From Minisyncoccota bacterium (GTDB lineage: Bacteria > Patescibacteriota > Minisyncoccia > Phycocordibacterales > UBA12079), in assembly GCA_023140255.1 (NCBI GenBank), contig JAGLLX010000001.1:27861-91860 (forward strand): a DNA stretch of 64,000 nucleotides, given 5' to 3'. A program made the translations under genes and the position numbers. Below the pieces are notes generated by a model. It saw nothing but the letters and a program-made list of their open reading frames with translations, was not told the origin of the DNA and searched no databases. This document shows, in pieces, positions 7,106 through 63,376 of this stretch. The stretch's first letter is position 1. Each line of letters opens with the position of its first letter.

Positions 7106-7118
7106 CACAACACAAATT

Positions 7119-7150
7119 AAAAACACCAACTTGAGTTGGTGTTTTTAATT
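7119..7150 (+). terminator. Rho-independent terminator after tRNA-Ser
   Basis: AAAAACACCAAC-TTGA-GTTGGTGTTTTT hairpin followed by T-run. Confidence 0.6.
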
Positions 7151-7181
7151 TTTAAATCTAATTTTATGCTAAAATATCTAT

Positions 7182-7631
7182 ATGGAAAATGAAATTTCAT
7201 GGGAAGCTTTTGAGTATGAATTTAACCCTAAATCTAATAATTGGTTTTGGGTTATTTGGATTTTAGCTCTTGGTCTTTCTGTTATGTTTTATTTGCTTGG
7301 TAATATAGTATTTGGAATACTTATATTAGTAGCAGTTTTTTCTATTTCTGTTTTTGCTAGCCGCAAACCAGATTTAATGATAATTAGACTTAACTCTAAA
7401 AAAATAATTATTAAAAACAAAGAAATTGATCTTGATGATCTAGAGTCTTTTTGGATTGAAAATCAAAAAATTTTATTTAAATCTTTAAAAAAATTAAGTC
7501 CTTATATTATAATCCCTTTGAGCTCAAGAGCTGATGTAGAAGAAATACGAGATTATTTACTAGAATATTTAGAAGAGGAAGAACTCCATGAATCAATTCT
7601 ACAAATTTTTTTAGAAAAGATTTGGTCATAA
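7182..7631 (+). CDS. Hypothetical membrane protein
   Basis: 149-aa ORF, two TM helices near the N-terminus, acidic C-terminus. Confidence 0.4.
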   Translation: MENEISWEAFEYEFNPKSNNWFWVIWILALGLSVMFYLLGNIVFGILILVAVFSISVFASRKPDLMIIRLNSKKIIIKNKEIDLDDLESFWIENQKILFKSLKKLSPYIIIPLSSRADVEEIRDYLLEYLEEEELHESILQIFLEKIWS

Positions 7632-7639
7632 AAATTTTT

Positions 7640-25196: not shown

Positions 25197-26294
25197 TTAT
25201 TTATTCATTGGCATCACTAGATATAAAAATTGATTATCTGATACTCCTCTAATGATCATAGGTTTACCTATATTATTAAACTGAAGAACTATAGAATCAG
25301 TATGAATAGATTGGAAACAATCTGTTATATATTTATAATTAAAATTAATGTTTAAATCATCTCCTGACAAAGAAGCTGATAAATTATTTACATTTTCCCC
25401 TACTTCGTCACTCTTTGATTTTATTTCAAACTTCTTATTATTAGGTTCAATATTAAAATTAACTTGATTAAACTTATCTGAAAAAATATTTATTATTTTA
25501 AAAACTCTTATAAAATCTTCCATTAAAACTACAACTTCAGTAGTAAATTCTTTAGGAATTAATTGTTTATAATCAGGAAAAGAACCTTCAATAACTCTAG
25601 AAGTTAAATAAATATTATCATAATTAAAAGAAATCTGATTTTTACTTATTTCAATATCAATATCTCCTTCAACATCTTCAAATATTTTAATTATTTCGGG
25701 AACATTTTTAAAAGGTATTAAAATATTATTAATTTTCTCTTTTGAGATTATAGGAATTTTAGTTTCAGCTAATCTAAATGAATCTGTGGCCACAAAATAA
25801 ACAAAATCTTCCTCAATATTTATACAAACACTTGATAACTCTGGTTTTATACTAGAAATAGAAGAACTATACCAAACTGATTTAAGACCTTTGATTAATT
25901 TTTTAGAATCTAAAGATATTTTGTTATCCCCTTTTATTTTAGGTATGGAAGGAAAATCTTCACTTGTCTGAGTTTTAATAGTAGAAGTATTACTATCAGT
26001 AATAATATATAGGTTATTATTTTTAATTTCTAAATTAATTTTTTCATCAGAAATATTAGATAATAAATTTTTAAATATAGCTCCAGGAACAGCTATAATA
26101 CCTTCTTCTGCAATTTCAGTATTAATTGATATTTCTATTCCTAAATCTAAATTAGTAGCTTTAAAAATTAATTTATTTTCTTTAGCTTCTAGTAAAAGAA
26201 AATTTAAAATTTCTAAATTTAAATTTTTACCAACAATTTTCTCTGTCTTAGAAACTGCGTTTATTATTTTTTTTGTAATACATTTTAATTTCAT
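25197..26294 (-). CDS. dnaN: DNA polymerase III beta subunit (sliding clamp)
   Basis: Three-domain clamp of about 365 aa, directly downstream of dnaA. Confidence 0.85.
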   Translation of the reverse strand: MKLKCITKKIINAVSKTEKIVGKNLNLEILNFLLLEAKENKLIFKATNLDLGIEISINTEIAEEGIIAVPGAIFKNLLSNISDEKINLEIKNNNLYIITDSNTSTIKTQTSEDFPSIPKIKGDNKISLDSKKLIKGLKSVWYSSSISSIKPELSSVCINIEEDFVYFVATDSFRLAETKIPIISKEKINNILIPFKNVPEIIKIFEDVEGDIDIEISKNQISFNYDNIYLTSRVIEGSFPDYKQLIPKEFTTEVVVLMEDFIRVFKIINIFSDKFNQVNFNIEPNNKKFEIKSKSDEVGENVNNLSASLSGDDLNINFNYKYITDCFQSIHTDSIVLQFNNIGKPMIIRGVSDNQFLYLVMPMNK

Positions 26295-30179: not shown

Positions 30180-31427
30180 TTATTCTCCCGCTAAAGTTCC
30201 AGAGAATACTTGTAACCCCCATAAAGAGAAATCTTTTTTATTAATAAAGATTAAATAATCATCTTTATCTGTAATTTGTAATTGAGTAGCGTCTATTCCC
30301 CACCCCTCAGAGTCTGTTAAAGAAACAATTTTAATTGGTTTATTTGTTTCAGTATTTATAGACCATATTTCATCAGAAAATAAGATATTTCCTTTATACC
30401 AATTTTCTAAACTATAATTATAGATTTTTTGAGAAGGAATACCACAATATAGATTCGGAGTATCTTTTCCCCAAACACATTTTTCAGGGAATGTTCTGAT
30501 AGGAAGATCTGTATTTGTTTCGCTTTCAAAATCATAAAGAGATAAAGTTAATCCAAGTTTTGTATTTTGAGAATACAAAATATCTAAATCTTCATTTAAG
30601 AGAGTAGAAAGATTTGTTCTTTTTCCTAAAATTTTACTAAATTTCTTAGTTATAGAATCATAGATGAATAAATATCCTAATATATTTTCTGTTGATTTTG
30701 TTGTGAAAGCTATTCTTCTATCATCTATATTATCTATTCCCCATTCTCTCAGTGGTGACGTGAATAATTGTTTTGGTTTTGTGTTTTCTATATCAGTAAG
30801 TATCACATCTGAATTAGAACCAGAATCTACTAAATAAAATAAATCATCATTAATATATGTAATGTTTTGTATATTATCTTGTAAATAAACTCCATCTAAG
30901 TCCATATTAGTGCTAGTAGCGTTAGATGTCAGAGTGGCTGAATAAGTTTTTATTACATCATTATCTAAATAATTAAAGAATAATGTATTTTCATCTAACC
31001 AAGTTGTTGTATTTATTTTAGGGATAGTTTTGTTTGAAATTCTTTCTAAAGTTAATGAATTTGTTTTAGTTTCATAAATATGTCCTGTCATTTTTTCCAT
31101 ATAACGGATAGTATAAAAATCATCTTTTTCTATAGTTTGTTTAAAAATAATTGCTCCTGCAACAGGGTTGTCTGATATTTTTCTTAAGATTGGTATTGGG
31201 TTATTTGGATCTTGGTTATTTAAATAATCAGGATTGTTTCCTAAATTACCCCAGTCGTTCCCTAAACTTATATTTTGAACTTCATCCACCGGAAAAGATC
31301 CTATATTATCTGAACTTTGGTCATTATTATTTTCTTTGTTAAAAAAAATAAAGTAACTAAAAATTCCTACTATAAGTAAAATTATAGTTACTGTAATTAT
31401 TATTTTTTTAATATTTTCATTTTGCAT
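30180..31427 (-). CDS. Hypothetical membrane-anchored protein (last gene of T4SS-like operon)
   Basis: 415 aa, N-terminal TM, Trp/Gly-rich repeats. Confidence 0.35.
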   Translation of the reverse strand: MQNENIKKIIITVTIILLIVGIFSYFIFFNKENNNDQSSDNIGSFPVDEVQNISLGNDWGNLGNNPDYLNNQDPNNPIPILRKISDNPVAGAIIFKQTIEKDDFYTIRYMEKMTGHIYETKTNSLTLERISNKTIPKINTTTWLDENTLFFNYLDNDVIKTYSATLTSNATSTNMDLDGVYLQDNIQNITYINDDLFYLVDSGSNSDVILTDIENTKPKQLFTSPLREWGIDNIDDRRIAFTTKSTENILGYLFIYDSITKKFSKILGKRTNLSTLLNEDLDILYSQNTKLGLTLSLYDFESETNTDLPIRTFPEKCVWGKDTPNLYCGIPSQKIYNYSLENWYKGNILFSDEIWSINTETNKPIKIVSLTDSEGWGIDATQLQITDKDDYLIFINKKDFSLWGLQVFSGTLAGE

Positions 31428-31437
31428 TAATTTAATA

Positions 31438-32268
31438 TTAATTAGAAGGATTAGTTAACATCATTTGGGCATATTTAATAGCATTAATATAACTAATTTC
31501 TTCACTAGAAAGTAAATTTAAAGGAACTGTAATTCTATTAATTTCTATTGGAACATTACCTGTAGCTTTAATACTTAAAGGGGTTTTAATATTTATACTA
31601 CCAGTGTGTACTTTCCAAACAGGAATACCTAATTGACTAGCTAATTCTTCAGCTCTTGTGGAAGTGTTATAGTCTGATGAATTAGGGTCTGTAGATGCAT
31701 TGGTATTATTATTTTTAAGATCAAAATCATCCGTGTTGTTTGGGTTTTTGTAAGGGTTTGTCGGATCAGTATTTGTTTGATTATCTACATTTGGATTGTT
31801 TGTTGGGTTATCTTGTGGGTCTGGGGGAGGAGTAGTTCCTACAGGTGTTCCTCCTGGTTTATCTAAGTTAAGATTAAAATCTGTTAAACTAGTATTAATT
31901 GTTTTTAAGATTAAAAAGGCGGCTAAGGCGACTAGTAAACCTAACAAAGCATCTTGTATCTGTTTCTTAGCGTCATTTTTTGTATACATTGTTTCTGAAA
32001 TAATATATTTAAAACCTCCCATTACTATCATTAATACAGCTAAAACAGAAGCTAAACCTATCGCTAAATTAAATATATTTTTTAAATAATCTCCCAAAGC
32101 AGCATCACTAGTTACTTTAGTAGGACCACCAGGTAACGGTGTTAGTAATTCATATTCAGCAGCAGAATCAACAAGTAAAGGATTAACTGAAAAAACACCA
32201 AATAATACTATTATTATAATAAGTATTTTAGAAAAATTTAATATTTTTATTTTATTTTTTAAAATCAT
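31438..32268 (-). CDS. Putative T4SS pilin-like protein (TrbC/VirB2-like hydrophobic hairpin) with Pro/Thr/Asn-rich tail
   Basis: Signal/TM, then LPGGPT, two hydrophobic helices separated by a short polar loop, long low-complexity C-terminus. Confidence 0.4.
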   Translation of the reverse strand: MILKNKIKILNFSKILIIIIVLFGVFSVNPLLVDSAAEYELLTPLPGGPTKVTSDAALGDYLKNIFNLAIGLASVLAVLMIVMGGFKYIISETMYTKNDAKKQIQDALLGLLVALAAFLILKTINTSLTDFNLNLDKPGGTPVGTTPPPDPQDNPTNNPNVDNQTNTDPTNPYKNPNNTDDFDLKNNNTNASTDPNSSDYNTSTRAEELASQLGIPVWKVHTGSINIKTPLSIKATGNVPIEINRITVPLNLLSSEEISYINAIKYAQMMLTNPSN

Positions 32269-32271
32269 ATT

Positions 32272-33270
32272 TTATTTAAAATTTAATTGAAAGTCATTTT
32301 CAGTAAATAATTGGAATTTTTTTATATCTGAAATTTTAAAAGATATAAAATAAGACTCTGTCCCCTCTCCCTCTCTACGTAGAGTAATATCTTCTTTGAA
32401 ATCATAAACTGGTTTATTGTTTACAAGCCATTCGTATTTAATATTATCTTTATTATATAATGAAAAATAGAAAGGATAAACTTTTATTTTTATTTCTTCA
32501 GAATATGTATTAGAGACAGGAAAGTATTTTAAATTTCTATTATTTAATATTCCTAATAAAGGGTGGTTTTCGTAGAAAATTACTTCTGGAATATTATTTC
32601 GTATTAAAATACTTTTTTTGTTTTTAATTATTCCGTCTAGAGTTGTTACTTCAACTGAAATCATATTATCTTTAAATAACCCAGGTCCTACAATAGAAAA
32701 AGAATCTTTTCCATAACCAGAATCACTATTGGATATTTTCCAATCTTTTTTCCATAAATAAATTAATTCTTTAGGGTCTATTTTAACACCATTATTATTT
32801 ATAAAATTAGGAATAGCCACTATTTTAACCGTAGATTCGTGGGTATTTAAAGCTTTTCCTTTATAGAAAGGAGGAGTAAATGTATCTGTTTCCCAAATTA
32901 AATCTAATTCAGTAGGAATAATCTTAAATGTTTTTATTAATTGACCTATATCTGAAGAAGTTACCTGAACACTTAGGTTTGTAGTTTCTCCAAAATTTTT
33001 AGTTCTAAAATTAAATTCTTTATTTCCTATTCCTTCTGATTTTAAAACTCCATCAATAAACCAAGAAATTTTTGCTTTATAAATATCAGTTATATATATT
33101 TCTGTTGTAACAGTAACGTTTTGGTAAGCTGAAGGAAATGCAGGGTTTAATTTAATGTTTATGTCTTGATTATTCATATCTAAATCAGCTTTAGATATTG
33201 AAAATAATCCTAATAATAAAATTATTATAAAAGATTTACATATTATTTTTTTAAGTTTTGAATTAAGCAT
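32272..33270 (-). CDS. Hypothetical secreted protein
   Basis: 332 aa with signal peptide. Confidence 0.35.
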   Translation of the reverse strand: MLNSKLKKIICKSFIIILLLGLFSISKADLDMNNQDINIKLNPAFPSAYQNVTVTTEIYITDIYKAKISWFIDGVLKSEGIGNKEFNFRTKNFGETTNLSVQVTSSDIGQLIKTFKIIPTELDLIWETDTFTPPFYKGKALNTHESTVKIVAIPNFINNNGVKIDPKELIYLWKKDWKISNSDSGYGKDSFSIVGPGLFKDNMISVEVTTLDGIIKNKKSILIRNNIPEVIFYENHPLLGILNNRNLKYFPVSNTYSEEIKIKVYPFYFSLYNKDNIKYEWLVNNKPVYDFKEDITLRREGEGTESYFISFKISDIKKFQLFTENDFQLNFK

Positions 33271-33664
33271 TATTTTTTAAAGTTTTTGTAAGTAGTCCTC
33301 CTATTTTATCTTGATTTTCTCTTGATAATATTTCCTTTCTATCTAGTTCATCATCTACTCTAACAATTACATAAGTTAATACTATCATAATAGTTAATCC
33401 AGGGAAAAAACTAAAAGTAACCTCTATCATTGGTGTTATTGTCCAAAGTGCTAACATCCTTAACCCTCTATCAAGAAGACCTACTCCTTTTATTTTAAGC
33501 CATATCCAAAAAATAAGAAATGCTGGGATAGCTAATAAAGAAGATAATATCCAACCTAAAAAAGGGATAAGATCTAATAGAGCTTGAATTCCGTCAATAG
33601 TCATAGCTGTTAAAAGCATAAGAATGAAACTTATTTTACTTATTCTGTAATTATATTCTTCCAT
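33263..33664 (-). CDS. Small polytopic membrane protein (T4SS-associated)
   Basis: 133 aa, 3 TM, directly downstream of VirB4. Confidence 0.35.
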   Translation of the reverse strand: MEEYNYRISKISFILMLLTAMTIDGIQALLDLIPFLGWILSSLLAIPAFLIFWIWLKIKGVGLLDRGLRMLALWTITPMIEVTFSFFPGLTIMIVLTYVIVRVDDELDRKEILSRENQDKIGGLLTKTLKNNA

Positions 33665-33700
33665 AATTTTAAATAAAGATTATATATTTGTTTTATATAA

Positions 33701-35518
33701 TTATTTTTGTGCTTCTTCTAATTCTTTCTTTGCTTTTTTAATATTTAATATTTGTGAAGGATCAGAAGTAATAATTTGATCTTCTGTATATGAAGCAAAA
33801 ATTTGAATAGCAATATGCTTCATTCCCACAAAGAAGATGCCCTCTCCTACTTTTGATTCCAATAATAAATATTTTTCTTCATCCGTTAAATTAAATGTTT
33901 TTTGAACTAAATCAATACTTGTTGGGGATTGTTTTAAGAGTAATTGAATAGATGAGTTTGTGATAATCGGCATTCCATAAGGAGAAGATAAAAAGTCATT
34001 TACATCTTGAGTGACAGTTGATATCCCTAAATAATACTTTCGTCCTCTTTTAGCTAACCCAAATAAGAAAGAAGCTGTGTCTTCTGTTTTCATCATCCAC
34101 CAAGCTTCTTCAATTACCAATAATCTCTTTTTCAAATTCTTTCGGATAGCACTCCAAATATATTGAGTAATAATATACATTGCTACAGGTTTTAATTCAT
34201 CCTCCATATCTCGTAGAGAAAAGACAATAAATTTTCTTTCAATATCTACATTTGTTGGTTGATTAATAAATCCAGACCATGTTCCTTTTGTATATTTAGC
34301 TAGTTTTTGAAGAAGATTGTCTGTATTTTCCATTCCAGCTAAAACTAATTCAAAATCAGATAATAAAGGTGCGTCTATATTTGAAAAATCAGAATCAGGA
34401 GTAATATCTTTAAGAGCATAAGTTTCTGTAATAGCCCTGTCAATAATAGAGTCTTCCTCTGGGCTAAGCCCTCCAAACATTACCCTAAATAAACCAACTA
34501 AGTTAATGATATTAGAACGAAGAACATTTGCTTGAGACTCATCTTCTCTGGCTTGAGGTAAATCAAAAGGATTAATATGGTGTTCGGAAGTTAGAGAAAT
34601 ATTAAAATATCGTCCATCCATTGCTTCAGATAAATATTCATATTCTTTTTCTGGGTCAATAACCATTACATCAATATCAAACATTAATGAACGTAAAATT
34701 TCTAATTTAACAGCATAAGATTTTCCTGATCCTGATTTCGCAAAGGTAACTGAATTATAGTTTGGAAGTGAATATCTATCAAAAAGAATCAAACTAGAAT
34801 TATGACGGTTAATTCCATATAAAATACCTTTATCTGATGTTAAATCTGAAGAGATAAAAGGAAATATACTGGAAAGAGGGGCAGAATTTAATTTAGAAGA
34901 AACTCCTAAAAGGTTTTGGTTCAAAGGTAATGTACTTTTAAACCCTTGTTCTTGTTGAAATAATGAAGGGCGAATATAAATCATTTTTGATTCTAAAATT
35001 GAACGGATTTCATTTTCAGTTCTATCTAACTCTTCTTCTGAGTCTCCATAAATAGAAACATAAACACTAACATCAAATAATTTTTCTTGGGCTTGTTGAA
35101 GTTTATCTCTTAAACTTTCTAAATTTTGATAAGCTGAATCCAAAGCTGGGTCTCTTACCAACCCTTTATTCTCTCTCATTATAATTTGGCTTTGAACCTC
35201 AGCTACTTTTTTTTGGAATTTTCTTAAAACCTTAGATGTTTCTATAGGATGAATAAAAATAGAAACATTGAATTCTTTATCTAAATTTATAACAGGAGAA
35301 AACCAATTATCAGTTAAAAATTTCGGATAAGAAATAACAAAAAAAGTTCTAATAATTTTTTCTCCTAAATGAGTTTCTTTTGGAGTTATTTTTAAAGCAG
35401 AAGGAGCAATAATATCCTTTAGTTCTAAAACTCCTGCATCATAGATTTCTTGAGGTAAAATCGGATCTATTTGTAGTTCTTTTTCTTTTTTATTTAATAT
35501 TTTATTTAAAAAATTCAT
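33701..35518 (-). CDS. virB4: VirB4/TrbE/CagE-family type IV secretion ATPase
   Basis: Walker A FAKSGSGKS, Walker B VIDPEKEY, RGRKYYLGISTVTQD C-terminal motif. Confidence 0.8.
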   Translation of the reverse strand: MNFLNKILNKKEKELQIDPILPQEIYDAGVLELKDIIAPSALKITPKETHLGEKIIRTFFVISYPKFLTDNWFSPVINLDKEFNVSIFIHPIETSKVLRKFQKKVAEVQSQIIMRENKGLVRDPALDSAYQNLESLRDKLQQAQEKLFDVSVYVSIYGDSEEELDRTENEIRSILESKMIYIRPSLFQQEQGFKSTLPLNQNLLGVSSKLNSAPLSSIFPFISSDLTSDKGILYGINRHNSSLILFDRYSLPNYNSVTFAKSGSGKSYAVKLEILRSLMFDIDVMVIDPEKEYEYLSEAMDGRYFNISLTSEHHINPFDLPQAREDESQANVLRSNIINLVGLFRVMFGGLSPEEDSIIDRAITETYALKDITPDSDFSNIDAPLLSDFELVLAGMENTDNLLQKLAKYTKGTWSGFINQPTNVDIERKFIVFSLRDMEDELKPVAMYIITQYIWSAIRKNLKKRLLVIEEAWWMMKTEDTASFLFGLAKRGRKYYLGISTVTQDVNDFLSSPYGMPIITNSSIQLLLKQSPTSIDLVQKTFNLTDEEKYLLLESKVGEGIFFVGMKHIAIQIFASYTEDQIITSDPSQILNIKKAKKELEEAQK

Positions 35519-35523
35519 ATTTT

Positions 35524-36171
35524 TTATGATAAATTAACAGGTTTCTCTGATTCACCAGGATTGAATAATTTATAAAGTAATTCAACCATCTCTTCTGTTC
35601 CTAGTTTTACTAAACGAACTCCTGTTCTTGTTAACCCACTTTTTATTATATTAGCTCTTTGTTCTAATTGTGTTCTATTTTCTTCAAATTCAATAGATTT
35701 ATCTTGTATAGAAATAGTTTTTTTTGAAATAAAAGGGTTTAAACTTTTTTTTGTATTCATTATTGGTGGGTTATAAGATATTATTACAAAAAAAGATTTT
35801 GTCATTATATTTGTTTTATTGGTAAAACTTTTTATAAAATTAATATATTCTTTAGTTTGAATTTTTATTAATTCATTTACTTGTTGTTTTTGTCTATCCT
35901 CCATCATTGTAACGTAAGGGCGAATATCTAATTTTTGAGATTGAATAAATATTTGAACTGGAAATTCAATAGAGTTAAGAAAATTCTGGAATTGTAATAT
36001 TATTGCTTGTTGCTCATCTGCTGACTTTAAAGCCAAGTTAATAGAAGATACCATTAATATAGTTGATAATGATCCGTCTTTTTGAATTATTACACCATCA
36101 CGAATTTCTTTTATTGTAACAAAGTCTTGTGTTTTTTTTGCATTTTTTGTATCCATAATAATATGATTCAA
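35524..36171 (-). CDS. Hypothetical protein (T4SS operon)
   Basis: 215 aa, no TM. Confidence 0.35.
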   Translation of the reverse strand: MNHIIMDTKNAKKTQDFVTIKEIRDGVIIQKDGSLSTILMVSSINLALKSADEQQAIILQFQNFLNSIEFPVQIFIQSQKLDIRPYVTMMEDRQKQQVNELIKIQTKEYINFIKSFTNKTNIMTKSFFVIISYNPPIMNTKKSLNPFISKKTISIQDKSIEFEENRTQLEQRANIIKSGLTRTGVRLVKLGTEEMVELLYKLFNPGESEKPVNLS

Positions 36172-36264
36172 GATTCAAGATTTATGATTTAGGAGGAAAA
36201 TCGTTTTATGATTTTTTCATTTCTTAAATCCTAAATCTTAAATCTGAAAATTTTTTAATTTTTA

Positions 36265-36660
36265 CTACTTATCTTTTATATCTAATTCCCAACTTATTTC
36301 TTTTAATTTACTATCTGATAAACGAGGAATATTTAATTGAGAAACTACATTTGTTTTTTCTACTTTCTCTTTTTTCTTTTTAGAATCTTTTTTCCATATA
36401 TATAATTTACTTGATGCCCAATATTTAAAAGCTGATTCTAAAAGATAAACAAAAGGTTTATTATTTTTTTTATAAAAAGCTAATGCTCCTGAAAAAATCA
36501 TTATTACTATTATTAAAATAATAGAGATGAATTTAGGTAATATTGTATAAAAAGTAAAAGAGATACCTGCTCCCCCGGCTAAATATATAAATTGTTTGAA
36601 AGTTAAAGGTCCAAATATTTTGTCTTCAACCTCAATAAATTGTGGTACTTGAAATTTCAT
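36265..36660 (-). CDS. PrgI/VirB3-like small membrane protein
   Basis: 131 aa, two TM helices, lies upstream of VirB4 as in Gram-positive-type T4SS. Confidence 0.35.
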   Translation of the reverse strand: MKFQVPQFIEVEDKIFGPLTFKQFIYLAGGAGISFTFYTILPKFISIILIIVIMIFSGALAFYKKNNKPFVYLLESAFKYWASSKLYIWKKDSKKKKEKVEKTNVVSQLNIPRLSDSKLKEISWELDIKDK

Positions 36661-36687
36661 TTTATAAAAATTGTTATAATAAATTTA

Positions 36688-37254
36688 TTATTCAATTGGT
36701 TCTCTATATGGGTCTATTGTATAACTTTTTTCATCTTTTTGCTTTTCTAAAACTGGGGATTGTTGATCCTTCTCTCTTGCTTCTGTCTTTTCTTGTTTTA
36801 ATGTTTTAATGTTTTCATGTTCTAGTGAATTTTTAGGTGTTTCAACTAAATCAGTAATTTCTTTTTGAGGATTTGATAATTCATTTAATAACTCTTCTCG
36901 CACTAAATCTTCATCTAAATCCTCAGCATCTTCATCAACTGTATTATGGATTTTCCTTAATGACTCTCTAATGTCTGCAAAAATAGTGTTATTAATTTCT
37001 TCTGCTAATTTTTTAGCTTTTTCAGAATTTAATTCAGTTACTGTTTGAACATTTTTAACAAAATTTGTTCTAGGTTTTAATCCAAGCATTATATAACCAA
37101 TTTCTTTAGTTAATTCTTCAGCTTCATCAAATTGGAGTTTATATTCATTAGCTAAAATTAAAAGTCTTTCATTAACTTTGTTAGATGAAATAGCTTCCCT
37201 AATATCTTCAGGAATACTTAAAAATTTTTCTTCTAGTTGTTTAAATGCGAACAT
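36688..37254 (-). CDS. Hypothetical acidic coiled-coil protein
   Basis: 188 aa. Confidence 0.35.
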   Translation of the reverse strand: MFAFKQLEEKFLSIPEDIREAISSNKVNERLLILANEYKLQFDEAEELTKEIGYIMLGLKPRTNFVKNVQTVTELNSEKAKKLAEEINNTIFADIRESLRKIHNTVDEDAEDLDEDLVREELLNELSNPQKEITDLVETPKNSLEHENIKTLKQEKTEAREKDQQSPVLEKQKDEKSYTIDPYREPIE

Positions 37255-37259
37255 AATAA

Positions 37260-39293
37260 TTATTTTTTATCCTTACTTGAATCTTTTGTTTTACTTTTAT
37301 CTTTAGTACTATCTTTAATTTTTGTAATTTTACCTTTAATTTTTTCTATTTCGTCTTCCATTTTTTCTATCTCATCTTTTTTGTCATTTATTCTATTTTT
37401 GTAATTCAGCACTTCCGATTCCTTTGATGACATCATTCCATTATCTATAGCCTTTTCGTAAGATACATAATCCTTATTGATATTTTCTAATTCTCTTTTC
37501 TCTCTTTTTAATTTATTTTTTGCGGTTTCCATTTCTCTTTCATGTTTAGGTAAATTAACTAATGCTTTAGCTGCGGCCACATCTCCTTCATGATTTCTGA
37601 ACATTGTAGTAAATATTGAAGCATTTCTACCTCTACTTTCTGTTTTATCTTTAAGACTTTGTCCATAAGCTTCAGTTCTAGAGATTTTATTTCCAGCTGA
37701 ATCAGTAATATCTCCCTTTAATGCTTGAGCAAATTTGATTTGAGATTTTCTTCTTTCGTCCACTTTTGTTTTATAACCACCTTTAATTCCCTCACCTACT
37801 CCTCCAGGAATTTTTCCTAAAGTAGCTTTGCCAACTTCAGTGTTTCTTGCATCAAAACTTGAATCGGCCACATTACGTAGTCCTTTCAGACCCATTTTAC
37901 CATACCATTTTGAAGCATGGTCAGAGTTTCCAAGATTCTCAGCTCCCTTACTAGCTAATGCCCCAACTGTATTTCTTCCTAATCTTCCTGCAGCTCCGAA
38001 AGTAGCAGCTCCAGCTCTTCCTTGTCCCCATTTTTGCACACCTTCTCCTATTTTTATTACACTACTAGCACCTTTTGCTCCAAGACTTTTAGCTGAAATT
38101 AAAGCCCCTACCATGAAAAAAGTAATTAATATAAAATTAAAAATTACTATCATAGAACCTCCTCCAGCAAATGCTTCTGCAAAATTATTATTTCCAGCAT
38201 CACCTAACGATTGACTGAATGCTGGGTCGTTTATCCCTTTAGCTACTATATAAACAAACATTAGGTAAATTGGAGCAAAAAAAGCCTGACTAAATAATTC
38301 ATTCCACCATTTTTTAGTTAGACCTCCTGTTTTAGGTAAAATCATTCCTATAAAAGCGAGGGGTGAGAGCATCATTAAAAACATCAAACTAACTATTCTA
38401 ACAACAAATAAAATAGCCGCAGCGAAAAATACAAAGGCAGTAATTAATAAAAAGATAGAACCAAATATAGCAATTGTGAAAATCTTTTTATTAGCATCTC
38501 CCTCTGCTAGTTTCCCATCATAAATGGTTTCTAAGTTTAGTGCTTGAGAAAAAGTAGCGGAAATTCCTTTATCCATCCTTGCAAAACCACTATCCATAAA
38601 TGAAAGATCTGAACTTGCTTTTTCTTGAGTTATAGCATTATAAAATCCAATACCGATGATATTAGAAGTATCAATTATTACACTAGTAAAAAATAAAGAA
38701 AAATTTATAAGTAAAGCAACTATAATAATATTTTTAAGAGAATTTTTAATATTATAACTAGAAAGACCTAAGATTGTTCCAATTGATATAAAAAGTAAAA
38801 GGAATATAAAAATCATATTAGAAAGGTCTCTAATAATACTCCACCCTATATTAACCATACCTAATTGATCTACTAAATTTTTAAAGTTAAGGGTGTATTC
38901 TAAAGAAATATTAAATAAAATCCCTGCTATAGCTAAAACTTGAGCACTTAATTTAAGTATAGTATTCCCTATAGAAGTAAGAGCTTTATCAATCCATGTG
39001 GATGGATTTAACATCGTTCCTAAATTAGATATTTGGGCAGCGAAAGTGTTTTGAGGGTCAACTTTTGTATAATCAGGCATTGGTGTAAATGAACCGTCTT
39101 CACCAACTTTATTACCATTATTAACATCTTGATTCCACCAATCAGCAAAACCAGATAAAAATGATCCATTATTTTCATCAGCCGCAAAAGTAGTACTATT
39201 AAAACCAACTGATCCTAAAAATATTAAGATAATTAAAAAAGAAAGAAAACCAGTTTTAAATATTAATTTATTTTTTTTAAAAATATTTAGCAT
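37260..39293 (-). CDS. VirB6/TrbL-like polytopic membrane protein with charged coiled-coil C-terminus
   Basis: Signal peptide, 6 or more TM helices in centre, Gly-rich loops, KE-rich tail. Confidence 0.45.
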   Translation of the reverse strand: MLNIFKKNKLIFKTGFLSFLIILIFLGSVGFNSTTFAADENNGSFLSGFADWWNQDVNNGNKVGEDGSFTPMPDYTKVDPQNTFAAQISNLGTMLNPSTWIDKALTSIGNTILKLSAQVLAIAGILFNISLEYTLNFKNLVDQLGMVNIGWSIIRDLSNMIFIFLLLFISIGTILGLSSYNIKNSLKNIIIVALLINFSLFFTSVIIDTSNIIGIGFYNAITQEKASSDLSFMDSGFARMDKGISATFSQALNLETIYDGKLAEGDANKKIFTIAIFGSIFLLITAFVFFAAAILFVVRIVSLMFLMMLSPLAFIGMILPKTGGLTKKWWNELFSQAFFAPIYLMFVYIVAKGINDPAFSQSLGDAGNNNFAEAFAGGGSMIVIFNFILITFFMVGALISAKSLGAKGASSVIKIGEGVQKWGQGRAGAATFGAAGRLGRNTVGALASKGAENLGNSDHASKWYGKMGLKGLRNVADSSFDARNTEVGKATLGKIPGGVGEGIKGGYKTKVDERRKSQIKFAQALKGDITDSAGNKISRTEAYGQSLKDKTESRGRNASIFTTMFRNHEGDVAAAKALVNLPKHEREMETAKNKLKREKRELENINKDYVSYEKAIDNGMMSSKESEVLNYKNRINDKKDEIEKMEDEIEKIKGKITKIKDSTKDKSKTKDSSKDKK

Positions 39294-39309
39294 TTATTTA
39301 TTAGAATAA

Positions 39310-40878
39310 TTATTCTCTTATAGTACAGGTATTAGAATCTTTACATAAAATACATTCGTCATATCTTTGTTGAATACCTTTATTAGTTTCAGGAATATAA
39401 TAATCATAATTAGATATGCGAGTATTTATTAATCTATTGATGTCATAACTAATTCCCATTGGTAATCCAGATGCTGAAGTACCATAACCATCCCTTTCTA
39501 TTTCTGCATCAGAAATTTCTATAAGACCGTGTACATAAGGTGCCAAAGTACCATATTTAACCATTATTTCATTTAATTGATTAGCAGTATTTGATAATAA
39601 AGTTTCGTCTTTAAATGTATTTAATACCAGAATAATTTCATCTGATTCTACGATATCATTATAGAGATTATTTTCTAATGTATATAGATCTATAGTAAAT
39701 GAGGGTTGAGTAAAGATAATTGGTTCTGTCAAAAGTTTATTAGCTAAATCAAGTTTATCTGTTTCGTGAGTTACAGTTAAGCAATCTATTAAATCAAGAA
39801 TTAAGTCTCTAGCTCCTAATATTAATCTGTAAGAATCATTTTTAATTTTGTTATATTCTACTTCAAAAGCCAAAGAATCATTTATTTTACTATTAATATT
39901 AGTTTTTATAGAACCTAGGCTTTGTGAATTGTCGTAAGAAGACATATCATTTTGTCCTAACAAACCAGTAGTACTCATTATACTCTTTACTAATTGCATG
40001 AATAATGCCCCTGCAACTTCATTAAATTCATCAGCAGTAACAAGAGAATCTTCAGTTAAACCTAAAGTATGATTTAATTTTGATTCAAGAACTGACCCAG
40101 GAGTTTTTATTTCACAATGTTCTACTTGGTTGCATTGACCGTCTTCACAATCTGCTCCATCCCACATCTCACAGTCTTCCCAAGATAAAAATCCTTCTCC
40201 CCAATTAGCTTGAGTTTTCATTTTTTCTGTTGCTGCAAAAATTTCATCTAATATTTCAGATTCAGCCTGTAAATAAGCTCCATAAGTATTGTTATTATCT
40301 TCAGTTGTCATTTCTATCCATGTTCCCCAACGAAAATCATTTTCTAAAGAAGTTAAAGCTCCTCCCGCATTATCTATAATATCAGATAAAGTACAACTAG
40401 GAGCATCACTTTCATAAAAGGTATTCCATAAAGCTAATTTAATATCAATACTAAAAGGATCGCATAAGAAAGCTAAGTCTGTTCCTTCAATATACTCTCC
40501 AATTACTTGGTCAGCAATATTAAATAACATATCCTCAAGATTTGTTACAAAAAGAGGTCCCTCAAAACCATTATTTATCCAATTTACTATTGAGGTTGTC
40601 ATCTGTCTAATAAGTAATTTAGCGGCGGTCCATGCTAAACCATCTAATACAAACTCTTTATTCTCAGTAGCCCAAGCTGCAGCTGAGGCAATCTTATCAA
40701 AACCTACTGAAATACCATTTTTTATCATATTTATAATACTTATTCCAGTATTTCCAGGGTCTGTAACTGTCGTAGCAGCATCAACTTTATTTGGTTGTGT
40801 AAATAATAAAGAAGGAACTAAAAATGAAGTAACTAAAAAAATTGAAATTATTTTTTTATATTTTTTATTGAAAAACAT
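39310..40878 (-). CDS. Secreted cysteine-rich hypothetical protein
   Basis: Signal peptide; 522 aa. Confidence 0.35.
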   Translation of the reverse strand: MFFNKKYKKIISIFLVTSFLVPSLLFTQPNKVDAATTVTDPGNTGISIINMIKNGISVGFDKIASAAAWATENKEFVLDGLAWTAAKLLIRQMTTSIVNWINNGFEGPLFVTNLEDMLFNIADQVIGEYIEGTDLAFLCDPFSIDIKLALWNTFYESDAPSCTLSDIIDNAGGALTSLENDFRWGTWIEMTTEDNNNTYGAYLQAESEILDEIFAATEKMKTQANWGEGFLSWEDCEMWDGADCEDGQCNQVEHCEIKTPGSVLESKLNHTLGLTEDSLVTADEFNEVAGALFMQLVKSIMSTTGLLGQNDMSSYDNSQSLGSIKTNINSKINDSLAFEVEYNKIKNDSYRLILGARDLILDLIDCLTVTHETDKLDLANKLLTEPIIFTQPSFTIDLYTLENNLYNDIVESDEIILVLNTFKDETLLSNTANQLNEIMVKYGTLAPYVHGLIEISDAEIERDGYGTSASGLPMGISYDINRLINTRISNYDYYIPETNKGIQQRYDECILCKDSNTCTIRE

Positions 40879-40894
40879 TATATTAATTATTTAA

Positions 40895-41818
40895 TTAAAA
40901 GTTAATATTATTTTGTTTAAAAAATTCTCCTATCTTAACTGAAATATTTAGTATTTCCTCCATAGTTTCGTAATATTGTTTAGCTCCAAGTAATGCAGAG
41001 AGAGGGTCTGTAAATATTTTAATTAATTGTTCGGTATTTACTGTTGTTTTAATAAGTAAATTAGTTAAAGTTAAATGTTTGTTTTGTAAAACTAGAGGTG
41101 TTCTCATTTTTGTTAAATTATCTACAAGTTCTTCATAAAAAATTGTATTTGATTTTATTTCTTCTAATATTTCAGGTGAATTATTATCTAATGCTTCTTT
41201 TAAAATTAAATTATCATCTCTTAATTCAGGAATTCCAGAAAGTACCTGATTTAATTCCAATGCGTATCTTTGTAAGGATTCAGTGGATGAGTCTTCTATA
41301 ATATTTAAATCATTTAAAGTGATAAGGTTAAACTCTGGTTCATAACTTAACTTATCATAAGCAATCATTTGAATAAGGTCTTCTTGTTCTTGTGTTCCTA
41401 AAGTACCACTTTGTTTCAAGGCTACATAACTTGTAAATATTTCTCTTGCTAATATATCAGTTTGGGTTAATTCAGTTTGAGGTGTTTGTGTAGGTTCTTT
41501 TTCTTTAAAAATTATTTTATTTAAATTACCTTCCCCTTTAATTAAAGGATCTCTATTTGCTAAAATTTCATCATTATCGTTCATTCCATCATTATCAGTA
41601 TCTATATTATTTGGATCAGTTTTCCATAATACTTCCTCCCAATCTTTTAACCCGTCACCATCAGAATCTTTTTGGATAATTTGGGTAGTAATTTCTTGAG
41701 TATCAGAATCATCTATTGAAATATTTTCTGAATTATTGTTATTAAAAATAATAAAGATAACAAAAAATACCAAAATAACACCAGAAGTCATTAATAGTTT
41801 TTTGTTCCAAAAATCCAT
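40895..41818 (-). CDS. Membrane-anchored protein with thrombospondin-type-3-like Ca-binding repeats (DxDxDG)
   Basis: DSDGDGLKDWEE ... DTDNDGMNDNDE; first gene of operon. Confidence 0.4.
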   Translation of the reverse strand: MDFWNKKLLMTSGVILVFFVIFIIFNNNNSENISIDDSDTQEITTQIIQKDSDGDGLKDWEEVLWKTDPNNIDTDNDGMNDNDEILANRDPLIKGEGNLNKIIFKEKEPTQTPQTELTQTDILAREIFTSYVALKQSGTLGTQEQEDLIQMIAYDKLSYEPEFNLITLNDLNIIEDSSTESLQRYALELNQVLSGIPELRDDNLILKEALDNNSPEILEEIKSNTIFYEELVDNLTKMRTPLVLQNKHLTLTNLLIKTTVNTEQLIKIFTDPLSALLGAKQYYETMEEILNISVKIGEFFKQNNINF

Positions 41819-58700: not shown

Positions 58701-59594
58701 ATGAAAGGTTTAAAACAATTAAAAAATGAGTTTCTGGAATATCTAGAGATTGAAAAAGGGCGAAGTCTTAAAACTGTTGAGAATTATGATCGCTACTTAA
58801 GTCGTTTTTTGGGTTATCTAGAATCAGACTTCCCTTCTGCTATTACTGATGAAAAAATGAGAAAGTATCGTTTATGGTTAAATCGTCAACCAACTGGAAA
58901 TAATTCAGAAACATTAAAAAAGAGAACTCAGAATTATTATTTAATCGCTTTACGAGGTTTTTTAAAATATTTAGTCAAAAGAGAAATAAAATCTTTTGCT
59001 CCAGAAAAAATAGAACTAGCTAAAGTCGGAGAAAGGTCTTTAGATTTAATTTCGGCAGAAGAATTAAAAAGATTATTAAATATATCAAAAGGAAAAGATT
59101 TAAAAGATTTAAGAGACAAAGCTATTTTAGAATTACTCTATTCTACAGGATTAAGAGTTTCAGAATTATGTGCTTTAAATTCTGATATTGATTTAAGAAA
59201 AGATGAAATGTCAGTTCGCGGAAAAGGAGATAAGGTACGAGTGGTTTTCTTTTCTCATTCAGCCAAAAAAGCAATTAAAGAATATCTTGATGCAAGAAAA
59301 GATATGGACGAAGCTTTGTTTACTTCATTGAGTAAAGATAAAGCTAGTCGTTTAACTACAAGGTCTGTGGAGAGATTAGTTAAACAATTAGCCATTAAAG
59401 CTGGGATTACAAAGAAGGTTACTCCCCATATTATTAGGCATTCCTTCGCTACTGACTTGTTAGAGAATGGGGCTGATTTAAGATCAGTGCAAATGATGTT
59501 GGGTCATTCTGATATCTCTACTACTCAAATTTATACCCATATGACAGATAAACATTTAAAAGATATACATAAAAAATTTCATAATAAGAAATAA
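58701..59594 (+). CDS. xerC: Tyrosine recombinase XerC/XerD family
   Basis: N-terminal SAM-like domain; catalytic R..HxxR..Y (HIIRHSFAT ... TQIYTH). Confidence 0.85.
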   Translation: MKGLKQLKNEFLEYLEIEKGRSLKTVENYDRYLSRFLGYLESDFPSAITDEKMRKYRLWLNRQPTGNNSETLKKRTQNYYLIALRGFLKYLVKREIKSFAPEKIELAKVGERSLDLISAEELKRLLNISKGKDLKDLRDKAILELLYSTGLRVSELCALNSDIDLRKDEMSVRGKGDKVRVVFFSHSAKKAIKEYLDARKDMDEALFTSLSKDKASRLTTRSVERLVKQLAIKAGITKKVTPHIIRHSFATDLLENGADLRSVQMMLGHSDISTTQIYTHMTDKHLKDIHKKFHNKK

Positions 59595-59655: not shown

Positions 59656-59955
59656 ATGATATATTCTAAAATTCCATGTGTCTATATACTTACAAATAAG
59701 AAAGATGGGGTCTTGTATACTGGAGTAACTAGTAATTTAGAAAAAAGAATTTTTGAACATAAAAATAAATTAGTTTCTGGTTTTAGTAAAAAATATAATT
59801 TACATATTTTAGTTTATTACGAACAAGGGGAAGATATGACAAGTGTTATTTATAGAGAAAAACAAATTAAATCTGGTTCAAGAGAAAAAAAGATCAAGTT
59901 AATTATAAAGATAAACCCAGAATGGAAAGATTTATCAAAAAACTTATTTATTTAG
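59656..59955 (+). CDS. GIY-YIG nuclease superfamily protein (UPF0213-like)
   Basis: CVYILTNKKDGVLYTGVTSNLEKRIFEHK. Confidence 0.8.
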   Translation: MIYSKIPCVYILTNKKDGVLYTGVTSNLEKRIFEHKNKLVSGFSKKYNLHILVYYEQGEDMTSVIYREKQIKSGSREKKIKLIIKINPEWKDLSKNLFI

Positions 59956-60304: not shown

Positions 60305-61780
60305 TTATTTAACATGATGTTTGTCTCTAATTTCCTTCAACTCTTTTTCTTCTTGAGCGGTTTTCTTTTCTATGCCTTTTTGACTTAATTGTATTAATTC
60401 TTTTTCTGATAATTTTATAAGTTCAAGAGTCTTTGTTTCTAGATATTCTTCGGTGTTTAGTTTAGGGTTATCTAAGACTTCTTCCATTAAAGCATTTAAA
60501 ACTAAGCCTATTTTAGGTCCTGGTTTTTCATTTATTATCTCCATAATACGATTCCCGTTTATTTTAAGCATTTTTACAGAAACAGGGTCTTTCATAGCTT
60601 CTTCTATCATAGCCATGTATTTTCTTAGTCTATAAGGCTTTTCTTTAGGTACACCCATTCCTATTCTATCGCAAGTTCTTAATTTCATTAAATCCCATAC
60701 GTTTTCAGGTCCTACATTAGCTATAATTCGTCTTACAGCTGATAAAGTAATCTGATCAATATCTGAAAAGAATAAGTGATTTCTTACTAATTTAGGAACA
60801 ACGTCTATTATTTTTCCAGAAAACTTTAATCTTTTTAATATTTCACGAGAAACTCTTTCGCCCACTACATCATGTCCGTAAAAAGTCCACTCCTTTTTTT
60901 CTTTATGCCATCTTTTTGTGTGTGGCTTGGCTATATCATGTAATAAAGCGGATAAACGAAGGTGTAAGGGCATTTCTTTGTCTGCTGAGTGCTGCAAGGT
61001 TCTTAAGTTGTGCTCCCAAATAGTATAAATATGGGCTCCTTTTTGTTTTTCATCCATTCCCATCTCTAATTCAGGCATAATATATTTCAAAAGTCCTAGT
61101 TTTTGGCTTAAAATAACACCGTCCATAGGGTTTTTAGACATTATAATCTTTGTAAATTCATCTCTAATTCTTTCTTGAGAGATATTTTCTAGGTTATTAG
61201 AAAATTTGATAATAGATTTTTGGGTTTCAATTTCTATTGAAAAATCTAATTCAGTAGCAAAACGCACAGCTCGTAGTATTCTTAAGGTATCTTCATTAAA
61301 TCTATCTTCAGAATTCCCTACTGTTTTTATGATTTTGTCTTTTAAGTCTTTTTGTCCGTTATATAAATCAACCAATGTTTCAGATGAAACATTATAAGCT
61401 ATCGCATTTATAGTAAAATCACGTCTTTTCAAGTCATCTTCTAGTTTATCGCTAAAAATAACAGTATCTGGGTGTCTTTCGTCAGAATAAGCACTTTCTA
61501 AACGATATGGGGTTACTTCTATTGTTTTGAGTGTTTCGTCTAATGTTTCATCTGAAACAATTCCTACTGTTCCAAAGGGGTTTTCATAAAAAGTATGCTC
61601 AAAAAGCTCTTGAATTTCTTCTGGTTTTGCATTTGTAGTAACATCCCAATCTTTCGGGGTTCTTTCTAAAAGAAGATCCCTCACACAACCACCAACTAAA
61701 TAAGCCTCGAAACCAGCTTTTTCGAGAGTTAATGTTACATGTGTAACTTCTTTTGGGATTTTTGTTTGTATATTTTCCAT
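60305..61780 (-). CDS. cca: CCA-adding tRNA nucleotidyltransferase / poly(A) polymerase family with HD domain
   Basis: GGCVRDLLL...DWD head motif; HD domain (LHDIAKP). Confidence 0.8.
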   Translation of the reverse strand: MENIQTKIPKEVTHVTLTLEKAGFEAYLVGGCVRDLLLERTPKDWDVTTNAKPEEIQELFEHTFYENPFGTVGIVSDETLDETLKTIEVTPYRLESAYSDERHPDTVIFSDKLEDDLKRRDFTINAIAYNVSSETLVDLYNGQKDLKDKIIKTVGNSEDRFNEDTLRILRAVRFATELDFSIEIETQKSIIKFSNNLENISQERIRDEFTKIIMSKNPMDGVILSQKLGLLKYIMPELEMGMDEKQKGAHIYTIWEHNLRTLQHSADKEMPLHLRLSALLHDIAKPHTKRWHKEKKEWTFYGHDVVGERVSREILKRLKFSGKIIDVVPKLVRNHLFFSDIDQITLSAVRRIIANVGPENVWDLMKLRTCDRIGMGVPKEKPYRLRKYMAMIEEAMKDPVSVKMLKINGNRIMEIINEKPGPKIGLVLNALMEEVLDNPKLNTEEYLETKTLELIKLSEKELIQLSQKGIEKKTAQEEKELKEIRDKHHVK

Positions 61781-61812
61781 AATATTAATGTTTCAGATGA
61801 AACTTTTTTGTG

Positions 61813-61833
61813 TAAATTTGTGTCCCCGGCAGT
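61813..61833. repeat. Displaced copy of tRNA-Arg(TCG) 3' end plus flank (att-like direct repeat)
   Basis: TAAATTTGTGTCCCCGGCAG identical to 62021..62040. Confidence 0.5.
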
Positions 61834-62027
61834 TCGGTCACAGGTTTCTAAATGAAATATTTCGCTATGGCTCATATTTCATTAAGAACCTTCGACCCCG
61901 TCTCATTATCGTTCCGTTTCTTTCGCTATCGCTCAGGAATACTCACGATATGCTCTGATTTTCGAATCCTGACGAAAGCAAAGAGATTTGCTTTCTCCGG
62001 AAACACAAATTTACTCCATAAATTTGT

Positions 62028-62099
62028 GTCCCCGGCAGGATTCGAACCCGCAATAACGGTTCCGAAGACCGTTGTGATATCCATTTCACCACAGGGACA
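62028..62099 (-). tRNA. tRNA-Arg (anticodon TCG)
   Basis: GTCCCTGTGGTGAAATGGATATCAC... ; anticodon loop CTTCGGA; T-loop TTCGAAT. Confidence 0.75.
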
Positions 62100-62197
62100 T
62101 ATAAGTATATATTATACACTATTACCTTTTAAAACAAAGTTTTGTGTTTTTATTTAAATATGATAAAATAGTCATTGTTATATAAAATAAAAGTTCC

Positions 62198-62268
62198 GCG
62201 GGTATAGTTTAGTGGTAGAACAACTGCCTTCCAAGCAGTAAACGAGAGTTCGATTCTCTCTACCCGCA
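62198..62268 (+). tRNA. tRNA-Gly (anticodon TCC)
   Basis: GCGGGTATAGTTTAGTGGTAGAAC... ; anticodon loop CTTCCAA. Confidence 0.85.
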
Positions 62269-62321
62269 CAAAATACTTAAAAATACCCAGAAAGATACAT
62301 AGTATTTTCGCAAGGTATTTT

Positions 62322-62389
62322 TAGTGGTAGAACAACTGCCTTCCAAGCAGTAAACGAGAGTTCGATTCTCTCTACCCGCACAAAATACA
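62322..62389 (+). repeat. 5'-truncated duplicate of tRNA-Gly(TCC) (positions about 13-73 + 3' flank)
   Basis: 68-bp identity to 62210..62277, including downstream CAAAATAC. Confidence 0.6.
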
Positions 62390-62402
62390 AAAAACAAAAA
62401 AC

Positions 62403-62434
62403 AAAAAACAAGGCATTTGCCTTGTTTTTTGTTT
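62403..62434 (+). terminator. Hairpin terminator preceded by (AAAAACA)3
   Basis: AAAAAACAAGGC-ATTT-GCCTTGTTTTTT. Confidence 0.55.
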
Positions 62435-62914
62435 AAATAATGTTTCATCTGAAACATTTAAGAACTTTAGCTGTGTATAATTGTGGATAAAACAGTGGAT
62501 AAAATGATAACTTGACCTTTAAAATTTTAGTGTTTTTTATAAGATATTTGTCTTTTTTAGATTAAATATGGTTTGATTAAAGGGTTTATATAAAAGTCTT
62601 GTAAAAAGGACAGATAATTTAAAATGTAAAAAATTGTAAAATAATGCTTTATAAACAAAAAATAATCTATCTTTAGTTATTAAAGAAAAGTTACTAAAAA
62701 TCTTAAAATTGTTTATATTTATGATTTATTTGCATTAAATAAAGATATGTTACTAAGTAACATAGTGCTACTATATAATAAATTTAAGAAATAAATATAA
62801 AAGCAGTGCTTGGAGTGCTGATTTGTAGATTAGTGCTCTTCTCAAAGTCATTAGATCATTTATTATTTAAATTATATTTTATTAGATATTTTAATATTGG
62901 TGTATAATTAAAAT

Positions 62915-63376
62915 ATGACCAAAACTTACAAAAGAAAAATAGGAGATTATGGTGAAGAATTAGCTTCTAAATTTTTAAAAAGAAAAGGTTTAAAAATTCA
63001 AGATAGAAATTATTTAAAAAAATGGGGTGAAATAGATATCATAGCTGTTAAGAAAAAAGGGTTTTTATGGCGAGAAATAGAGAAATTACATTTTATAGAA
63101 GTAAAAACAGTTTCATGTGAAACTAGACAGGGAACTAATAAAGAAATAATAGATGATTATTTACTAAGTGATAATATCCATGGTTGGAAATTACAACGAT
63201 TAAAAAGAGTTTTTCAGACATATTTAAGAGATGAAGATGTTTCAGATGAAACAAATTGGCAATTTGATATAATAATCGTCTTTATAAATCTAAAGGACAT
63301 TTCTATAAAGGACACAAATAAGCAGTATTCAGGTAAAAATTATTATATTGAGTATATAGAAGATGTTATTGTTTAA
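62915..63376 (+). CDS. YraN-family (UPF0102) endonuclease-fold protein
   Basis: GDYGEELASKFLKRKGLKI ... EIDIIAV ... FIEVKT motifs. Confidence 0.7.
   Translation: MTKTYKRKIGDYGEELASKFLKRKGLKIQDRNYLKKWGEIDIIAVKKKGFLWREIEKLHFIEVKTVSCETRQGTNKEIIDDYLLSDNIHGWKLQRLKRVFQTYLRDEDVSDETNWQFDIIIVFINLKDISIKDTNKQYSGKNYYIEYIEDVIV

Follow-up and report, generated by a model that had tools for sequence, protein, structure and literature searches.

A predicted origin-proximal cluster of centre-variant parS sites at the cca-tRNA-yraN locus of a Minisyncoccota bacterium

Chromosomal parS sites, such as those of Bacillus subtilis Spo0J and Caulobacter crescentus ParB (TGTTNCACGTGAAACA), are 16-bp inverted repeats with two 7-base arms. 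The parS consensus is TGTTTCAC-GTGAAACA, and bases G1 and A6 of each half-site separate it from the site of Noc (Jalal et al.). The Noc-binding site (NBS, TATTTCCC-GGGAAATA) of Firmicutes is also a 16-bp palindrome, which is read by a ParB paralogue and illustrates a specificity shift of a few bases, at half-site positions 1 and 6. In Corynebacterium glutamicum, ten parS sites lie within 35 kb, 73 kb from oriC; one of them is coding, and the cluster is where ParB nucleates and SMC is loaded (PMC7083940). Here, we describe a parS-like 16-mer in a stretch of 64,000 nucleotides (the window) from a Minisyncoccota bacterium of the Patescibacteria (assembly GCA_023140255.1, contig JAGLLX010000001.1, positions 27,861 to 91,860). 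Six copies lie in the cca-tRNA-yraN locus and probably represent an origin-proximal cluster of centre-variant chromosomal parS sites, that is, putative loading sites of ParB (Spo0J).

Of its 16 positions, the window motif shares 14 with consensus parS: the two 7-base arms, with G1 and A6, are unchanged, and the central CG alone differs. Four sites match the arm pattern TGTTNCA/TGNAACA exactly; site 3 departs from it by one outer base and site 6 by two. The centre reads GA/TC in five sites and TG in one, where canonical parS has the CG of its CACGTG core. Compared with the NBS, which departs from parS at half-site positions 1 and 6, the window sites alter the innermost base only. An identification as NBS was rejected, as this would need A1 and C6 in each half-site (TATTTCCC) and the window sites have G and A. 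Like known chromosomal parS, the sites are several, origin-proximal, and partly located within genes, and ParB, ParA, and ScpAB occur in the wider lineage. Unlike known parS, they have a non-palindromic GA/TC centre, the favoured centre varies between related genomes, and they lie away from parAB, two thirds of them in coding sequence (as V-S-x-E-T) and tied to a conserved gene neighbourhood. The arrangement resembles that of C. glutamicum in forming one tight, one-sided cluster near, not at, dnaA/oriC, but it is far tighter (1.9 kb), with fewer, mostly coding sites and a variant centre.

The motif TGTTTCA-GA/TC-TGAAACA, a near-palindrome in which a non-palindromic central GA is flanked by two perfect 7-base arms, is present as four exact copies (TGTTTCAGATGAAACA or its reverse complement TGTTTCATCTGAAACA), one copy with 15 of 16 bases, and one degenerate copy (AGTTTCATGTGAAACT). 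All six are confined to positions 61376-63253 (Table 1), and neither the rest of the window nor the 10 kb past its end holds a further copy. Together, the window and this extension (L001) cover 74 kb of continuous sequence, of which about 72 kb lie outside the cluster. All six copies contain the 14-base core GTTTCANNTGAAAC without a mismatch. When one mismatch was allowed, it matched seven times in the window (the six copies and a single one-mismatch match at 17807) versus 0.34 expected from dinucleotide-preserving shuffles, none of which gave seven. The earlier note had reported five copies in both coding and intergenic DNA and had judged them to be beyond chance, which is borne out. Each of the five is real and its context was correctly described (two in cca as VSDET and VSSET, one upstream of cca, one after the tRNA-Gly duplicate, and one in yraN), with coordinates off by 0-6 bases and lengths slightly wrong; the degenerate copy in yraN had been overlooked. 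Similarity between copies extends over at most 22 nt (AATGTTTCA..TGAAACATTA, sites 1 and 4), and the remaining flanks are unrelated.

Table 1. Coordinates of the parS-like sites and of other features in the window
Feature	Position	Strand or setting	Remarks
parS-like site 1, TGTTTCAGATGAAACA	61376-61391	inside minus-strand cca	exact match; V-S-S-E-T, CCA residues ~131-135
parS-like site 2, TGTTTCATCTGAAACA on plus strand	61544-61559	inside cca	exact match; V-S-D-E-T, variable loop after FGTVG
parS-like site 3, TGTTTCAGATGAAACT	61789-61804	intergenic, 9 nt upstream of cca start codon	15/16
parS-like site 4, TGTTTCATCTGAAACA	62441-62456	intergenic, after terminator hairpin of tRNA-Gly partial copy	exact match; 16 bp before DnaA-box trio
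parS-like site 5, TGTTTCAGATGAAACA	63238-63253	inside yraN	exact match; D-V-S-D-E-T
degenerate parS-like site 6, AGTTTCATGTGAAACT	63109-63124	inside yraN	T-V-S-C-E-T right after EVK motif
three tandem DnaA boxes (TTATACACA, TTATCCACA, TTATCCACT)	62472-62502		16 bp from site 4
AT-rich spacer	62503-62914	from DnaA trio to yraN	~410 bp
cca	60305-61780	minus	
tRNA-Arg(tcg)	62026-62098	minus	
tRNA-Gly(tcc)	62198-62269		
tRNA-Gly partial copy	62320-62394		
terminator	62399-62434		
yraN/UPF0102	62915-63376		
dnaN	25197-26294	minus	
dnaA	26519-27868	minus	
yidC-jag	28.8-30.1 kb	plus	
type IV secretion/conjugation-like cluster	30180-41818	minus	directly after yidC-jag
tyrosine recombinase (XerD-like)	58701-59594		adjoins cca
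GIY-YIG protein	59656-59955		adjoins cca

A distance of 33.5 kb separates the cluster from dnaA, and its restricted distribution near the origin is as for chromosomal parS. The DnaA trio next to site 4, on the minus strand, is the sole place in the 64 kb with three boxes within 80 bp. In 14 of 15 Patescibacteria genomes, the interval between cca and yraN contains a perfect TTATCCACA, in most cases accompanied by a second box at a distance of 10-21 bp, so that the parS-like cluster surrounds a conserved DnaA-binding element. Perfect boxes occur at 0.66 per kb inside the interval versus 0.048 per kb outside, a 14-fold difference (P about 5e-12). In oriC regions flanked by parS, tandem DnaA boxes and an AT-rich spacer are likewise found, as inside the window cluster; unlike in such regions, dnaA is 34 kb off and has one or two boxes of its own. 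Judged by these sequence features, the DnaA-box region between cca and yraN, ~34 kb from dnaA, may be a candidate oriC. GC/AT skew over 73 kb followed gene strand and did not place the origin.

The genome is of Parcubacteria type, and the window CCA has 100% identity to an NCBI protein labelled 'Candidatus Pacebacteria bacterium'. The nearest named relatives of this CCA are from Campbellbacteria and Nomurabacteria, and the gene order PNPase-NYN-S15-xerD-cca-tRNA-Arg-tRNA-Gly-yraN-(tRNA-Pro) is kept widely in Patescibacteria. At the orthologous locus, parS-like clusters were found in 17 of 17 other distinct Patescibacteria loci examined, a conservation beyond coding constraint. Two sets of relatives were used. 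A scan for the exact 16-mer, with one genome per species, gave at least 16 Patescibacteria loci among the matches listed; outside this phylum, the listed matches were mostly single and at chance level. All 10 listed Patescibacteria loci with CCA or YraN hits (L021, L050, L054, L056, L066, L078, L079, L090, L097, and L122) are the orthologous cca-yraN locus, with proteins that are 52-63% (CCA) and 36-52% (YraN) identical to those of the window. Every one of them has at least one further parS-like site, canonical-centre sites included. For example, L056 carries AGTTTCACGTGAAACT together with three GA/TC sites, TGTTTCACGTGAAACG adjoins a TC site in L021, and five full-pattern sites lie within 860 bp in L097. 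Four of the other six listed loci were examined. Two of these (L064 and L070) have one exact match each and at most a weak two-mismatch site besides, and the other two, both from Saccharibacteria (L041 and L092), have their sites at a different locus. There, AA- and GA-centred sites lie 343 bp apart (L041 1049-1407, L092 36-394) inside an O-antigen-ligase-like gene that adjoins rlmH, DUF4446, and a bactofilin gene.

The second set of relatives was found by protein alone and is unbiased for the motif. In these loci of 17-21 kb, sites were found only in the yraN-cca segment, with a chance expectation of 0.06. A relative with 77% CCA identity (L132/133) has GG/CC centres three times and one CG site, all within cca. 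Another, at 86% identity (L134), has CA/TG, GG/CC, and TA centres, with G for A beside the centre in some sites. Campbellbacteria GW2011_OD1_34_28 (L136/137) has five sites in or beside yraN, four of which are CACGTG-centred, and L260-L262 have fewer, weaker sites. Campbellbacteria, Taylorbacteria, and Saccharibacteria all have canonical CACGTG-centred parS at the orthologous locus, and the centres at this locus in relatives include CG, GG/CC, CA/TG, TA, and GA/TC. Within a genome, the centres vary less than they do between genomes (permutation p = 0.002). The position of site 5 is occupied in Minisyncoccia, Saccharibacteria, Taylorbacteria, and other genomes, and its alignment column reads nvsdet or dvsdet in the window genome, L134, L078, L079, L097, and L056. 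A separate position was noted at CCA residue ~305-325, where the conserved HD-domain peptide R-V-S-R-E/K is encoded by GTTTCACGTGAAAT or GTTTCACGTAAAAC in L132, L134, L260, and L261. These sequences are a near-canonical parS core, and the equivalent position in the window has no match within two mismatches.

Sites within genes follow one coding pattern. When parS is read from its first T, as TGT-TTC-ANN-TGA, a stop codon arises on either strand, and therefore only two reading frames are open to coding parS. Nearly all coding sites use x-GTT-TCA-NNT-GAA-ACA, which gives V-S-x-E-T. In the window, four of six sites are coding, and the residue x is set by the central dinucleotide (Asp for GA, Ser for TC, and Cys for TG). 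The 63,359 residues encoded at the Patescibacteria loci include 36 VSxET peptides versus 0.9 expected, and all 36 are in CCA or YraN. The exact parS codons are used in 27 of the 36, versus about 1% expected by codon usage, and the other nine are one or two bases off. As the peptide is restricted to these two proteins and is nearly always written in parS codons, selection acts on the DNA. Site positions vary among orthologues and fall in variable loops. In the CCA of two Saccharibacteria (L021 and L122), an insertion of 40-60 residues after FGTV holds three or four [D/N]VSxET modules, and this loop looks expanded to carry DNA sites.

The GA variant also occurs outside Patescibacteria. It is paired with a canonical site in Mesonia (L098), and it lies 620 bp upstream of parA-parB in a Rickettsiales genome (L108). 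In an AT-rich metagenome contig (L221), four CA/TG-centred sites lie upstream of parA-parB, and in a Spirochaetota genome (L013), TGTTCCACGTGAAACA and TGTTTCACGTGGAACA are mixed with GA/TC sites in a group of six. From such placements, the GA variant is predicted to act as an ordinary parS beyond the phylum. The Spirochaetota sites (6168-7633 of CBDFMP010000046.1, a metagenome-assembled genome, MAG) are spaced by ~280-320 bp (about 290) in a non-coding stretch of 1.9 kb, which lies downstream of flgI and of a FlgJ-like gene for a rod-binding protein, and their even spacing suggests a repeated unit. A further array was seen in a Verrucomicrobiales MAG (L039, JAQGOU010000376.1), where seven GA-centred parS-like sites at the contig start (1-420) have a period of mostly 41 bp with one larger gap. 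This array resembles a plasmid-type centromere or an iteron array.

A partner protein was sought in the same lineage. A homology search with Spo0J returned Bacillus proteins only. A metagenome scan for the AT-rich-coded signature GERR...ENxQR gave 103 ParB loci. One of these, from Hainich groundwater (L179), encodes ParA and ParB, and this ParB shows 100% identity to an NCBI protein of a 'Patescibacteria group bacterium'. Homologues of this ParB are present in Kuenen-, Kerfeld-, Falkow-, Komeili-, and Magasanikbacteria and in 'Candidatus Parcubacteria', and they have ParB_N, HTH_ParB, and ParB_C domains (PF02195, PF17762, and PF23552). In the NCBI taxonomy, Kuenenbacteria and Campbellbacteria both belong to the Parcubacteria group. 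On a 744-kb Patescibacteria contig, scpA-scpB lie 5 kb from parA-parB. In an alignment read with the roles of specificity residues in ParB and Noc described by Jalal et al., the ParBs examined from Patescibacteria retain R173 and, for the most part, G201, and the Noc-type lysines K179 and K184 are absent. In two ParB-bearing Patescibacteria genomes, no parS-like site was found within ~10 kb of parAB, which is consistent with parS being located elsewhere.

The assignment of the six sites to parS is based on sequence identity, on the clustering of the sites near the origin, on their conservation, canonical versions included, at the orthologous locus, on DNA-level selection, and on the presence of ParA, ParB, and ScpAB in related lineages. 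We infer that this genome encodes ParB and that such a ParB binds GA-centred sites. By analogy with studied ParABS systems, the helix-turn-helix of a ParB dimer would read the two GTTTCA arms. ParB would then shut as a CTP-bound clamp and slide to flanking DNA, which would give a single partition complex over the ~2-kb origin-proximal locus. ParA would segregate this complex, and the same complex would be the loading point of SMC-ScpAB.

Several observations weigh against this assignment. A signature scan, Pfam, gene tables, and tblastn revealed neither parA nor parB in the window, in the 10 kb past its end, or in ~4 kb before its start. The named ParB-positive relatives are mostly of the Kuenenbacteria/Falkowbacteria type and may not belong to the same class as this genome. 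The central CG is replaced in every window copy. Mismatches to canonical parS number two in sites 1, 2, 4, and 5, three in site 3, and four in site 6. In C. glutamicum, sites with at least three mismatches did not recruit ParB (PMC7083940), and the predicted binding of ParB to sites 3 and 6 is uncertain. L260-L262 have only weak sites with 1-2 mismatches. The motif scan selects for the GA variant, and centre statistics from its loci are biased. At two positions, site-less relatives read VNDET/ISDET or VSRE (at that of site 2, VNDETE or VNEETE), so sites arose or decayed where the protein tolerates them. Part of the similarity could be protein-driven, especially at site 6. This is the weakest site, with an intact core, a TG centre, and changed outer bases, and part of its match stems from the (T/S)V(S/T)R(E) motif that YraN conserves at that position.

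The earlier note had proposed a protein recognition site or the footprint of a small mobile sequence. The general idea of a recognition site is supported, and none of its specific candidates (a Xer/dif-like site, a restriction-modification target, or an uptake-type signal) is. A different recognition function is conceivable: the sites may be operators of another palindrome-binding protein, either a local transcription regulator acting on cca, the tRNA genes, and yraN or a factor specific to the origin, with a coincidental or convergent likeness to parS. Such operators would suit site 3, directly upstream of the cca start, and site 4, in the upstream region of yraN, as well as the adjoining DnaA boxes and the lack of a ParB gene in the window and the flanks examined. 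Yet both 7-base arms are identical to those of parS, four of six sites lie deep in coding sequence, which is unusual for operators, and the exact variant occurs among canonical parS and beside parAB in other phyla. An unrelated operator protein is unlikely because relatives have canonical CACGTG parS at the same locus. More doubtful still, and largely refuted, is that the DNA motif is a by-product of a functional V-S-x-E-T peptide in CCA and YraN. The coding copies do share one frame and one peptide, and site-less relatives are similar at two positions (VNDET, ISDET, and VSRE). However, two copies are intergenic, and the use of one exact codon set in 27 of 36 peptides far exceeds the expectation of about 1%. 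Moreover, site number and position differ between orthologues, in variable loops and insertions, and two unrelated proteins share VSxET only when they flank this locus, the peptide being absent from ~63,000 other residues.

It is also very unlikely, slightly less so than the peptide explanation, that a small mobile element or an integration event left the copies behind, or that they belong to a dif-type site. A tyrosine recombinase (a XerD-like integrase) and a GIY-YIG protein are encoded beside cca, partial duplicates of the tRNA-Arg 3' end and of tRNA-Gly lie within the cluster, and sites 1 and 4 have 22 nt in common. Against this, similarity ends at 16-22 nt, and there are no terminal repeats or target duplications of the kind that mark a miniature inverted-repeat transposable element or an in-frame palindromic element. 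In addition, sites are kept in frame at orthologous positions even though CCA and YraN are only 36-63% identical to those of the window, and relatives carry the recombinase in the same gene order, as with a housekeeping XerC/D. A dif site occurs once, at the replication terminus, and comprises two ~11-bp arms and a 6-8 bp spacer in ~28 bp, whereas six 16-bp copies are clustered here beside DnaA boxes and near dnaA. Least probable of all is a genome-wide signal that is locally dense, for instance one for DNA uptake or for restriction-modification. Many such signals are short palindromes, as is this motif, but they are expected to be spread through the genome. Here, all copies fall within 1.9 kb of the 74 kb of continuous sequence and the other 72 kb hold none, and the 17-21 kb loci of relatives have sites in the same 2-4 kb segment only. 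A hairpin or terminator role was rejected as well. The 20-mer folds at -5.9 kcal/mol because its sequence is palindromic, and no terminator was called at any site; the real terminator lies upstream of site 4 (Table 1).

The predicted parS cluster is a known kind of element. Its new aspects are the lineage-specific variable centre, the deep conservation at cca-tRNA-yraN, partly within genes, and the DnaA boxes away from dnaA. To our knowledge, the chromosome biology of Patescibacteria is essentially unstudied, and a search of a literature collection found no description of parS or ParB in this group (searched as Patescibacteria, Saccharibacteria, Parcubacteria, and candidate phyla radiation, CPR) or of the GA/TC variant string. 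A wider and clearly more tentative proposal joins several claims. The oriC or DnaA control region of Patescibacteria might lie in cca-tRNA-yraN, not by dnaA, and parS might have been held there since early in the radiation while its centre drifted by lineage. Retention might possibly have been achieved in part by writing sites into the flanking genes as V-S-x-E-T loops, which may even have been expanded. As a further speculative part, the homogenised centre within genomes would imply co-evolving ParB specificity or concerted evolution of the centromere sites.

The innermost base pair of parS is usually treated as a fixed CG. That the centre can vary bears on motif-based prediction of parS and oriC that assumes CACGTG. 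The sites place predicted centromere-like elements in a large, uncultured, genome-reduced phylum and hint at the position of its replication origin. They also provide a natural example of a DNA-binding site that constrains protein sequence, in the VSxET loops of CCA and YraN, and a locus-anchored marker for origin calling and replication-rate estimates in Patescibacteria MAGs.

Several minor features of the neighbourhood were noted. Rfam matches are tRNAs only. The partial copy of tRNA-Gly(tcc) comprises 75 nt that are 97% identical to the gene, begins 112 nt later, and is without the 5' end; it has an Rfam tRNA score of 42.8 bits, yet no ARAGORN call. The 3'-terminal 20 nt of tRNA-Arg(tcg), TAAATTTGTGTCCCCGGCAG, are directly repeated 206 bp apart (61813-62038), and the pair brackets a decayed T-arm-like piece. 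This arrangement resembles an att-type integration scar and is too short for an element. The type IV secretion or conjugation-like cluster near dnaA encodes a TraG/VirB4 P-loop ATPase, PrgI, a type IV secretion system pilin, and several large proteins with no Pfam match.

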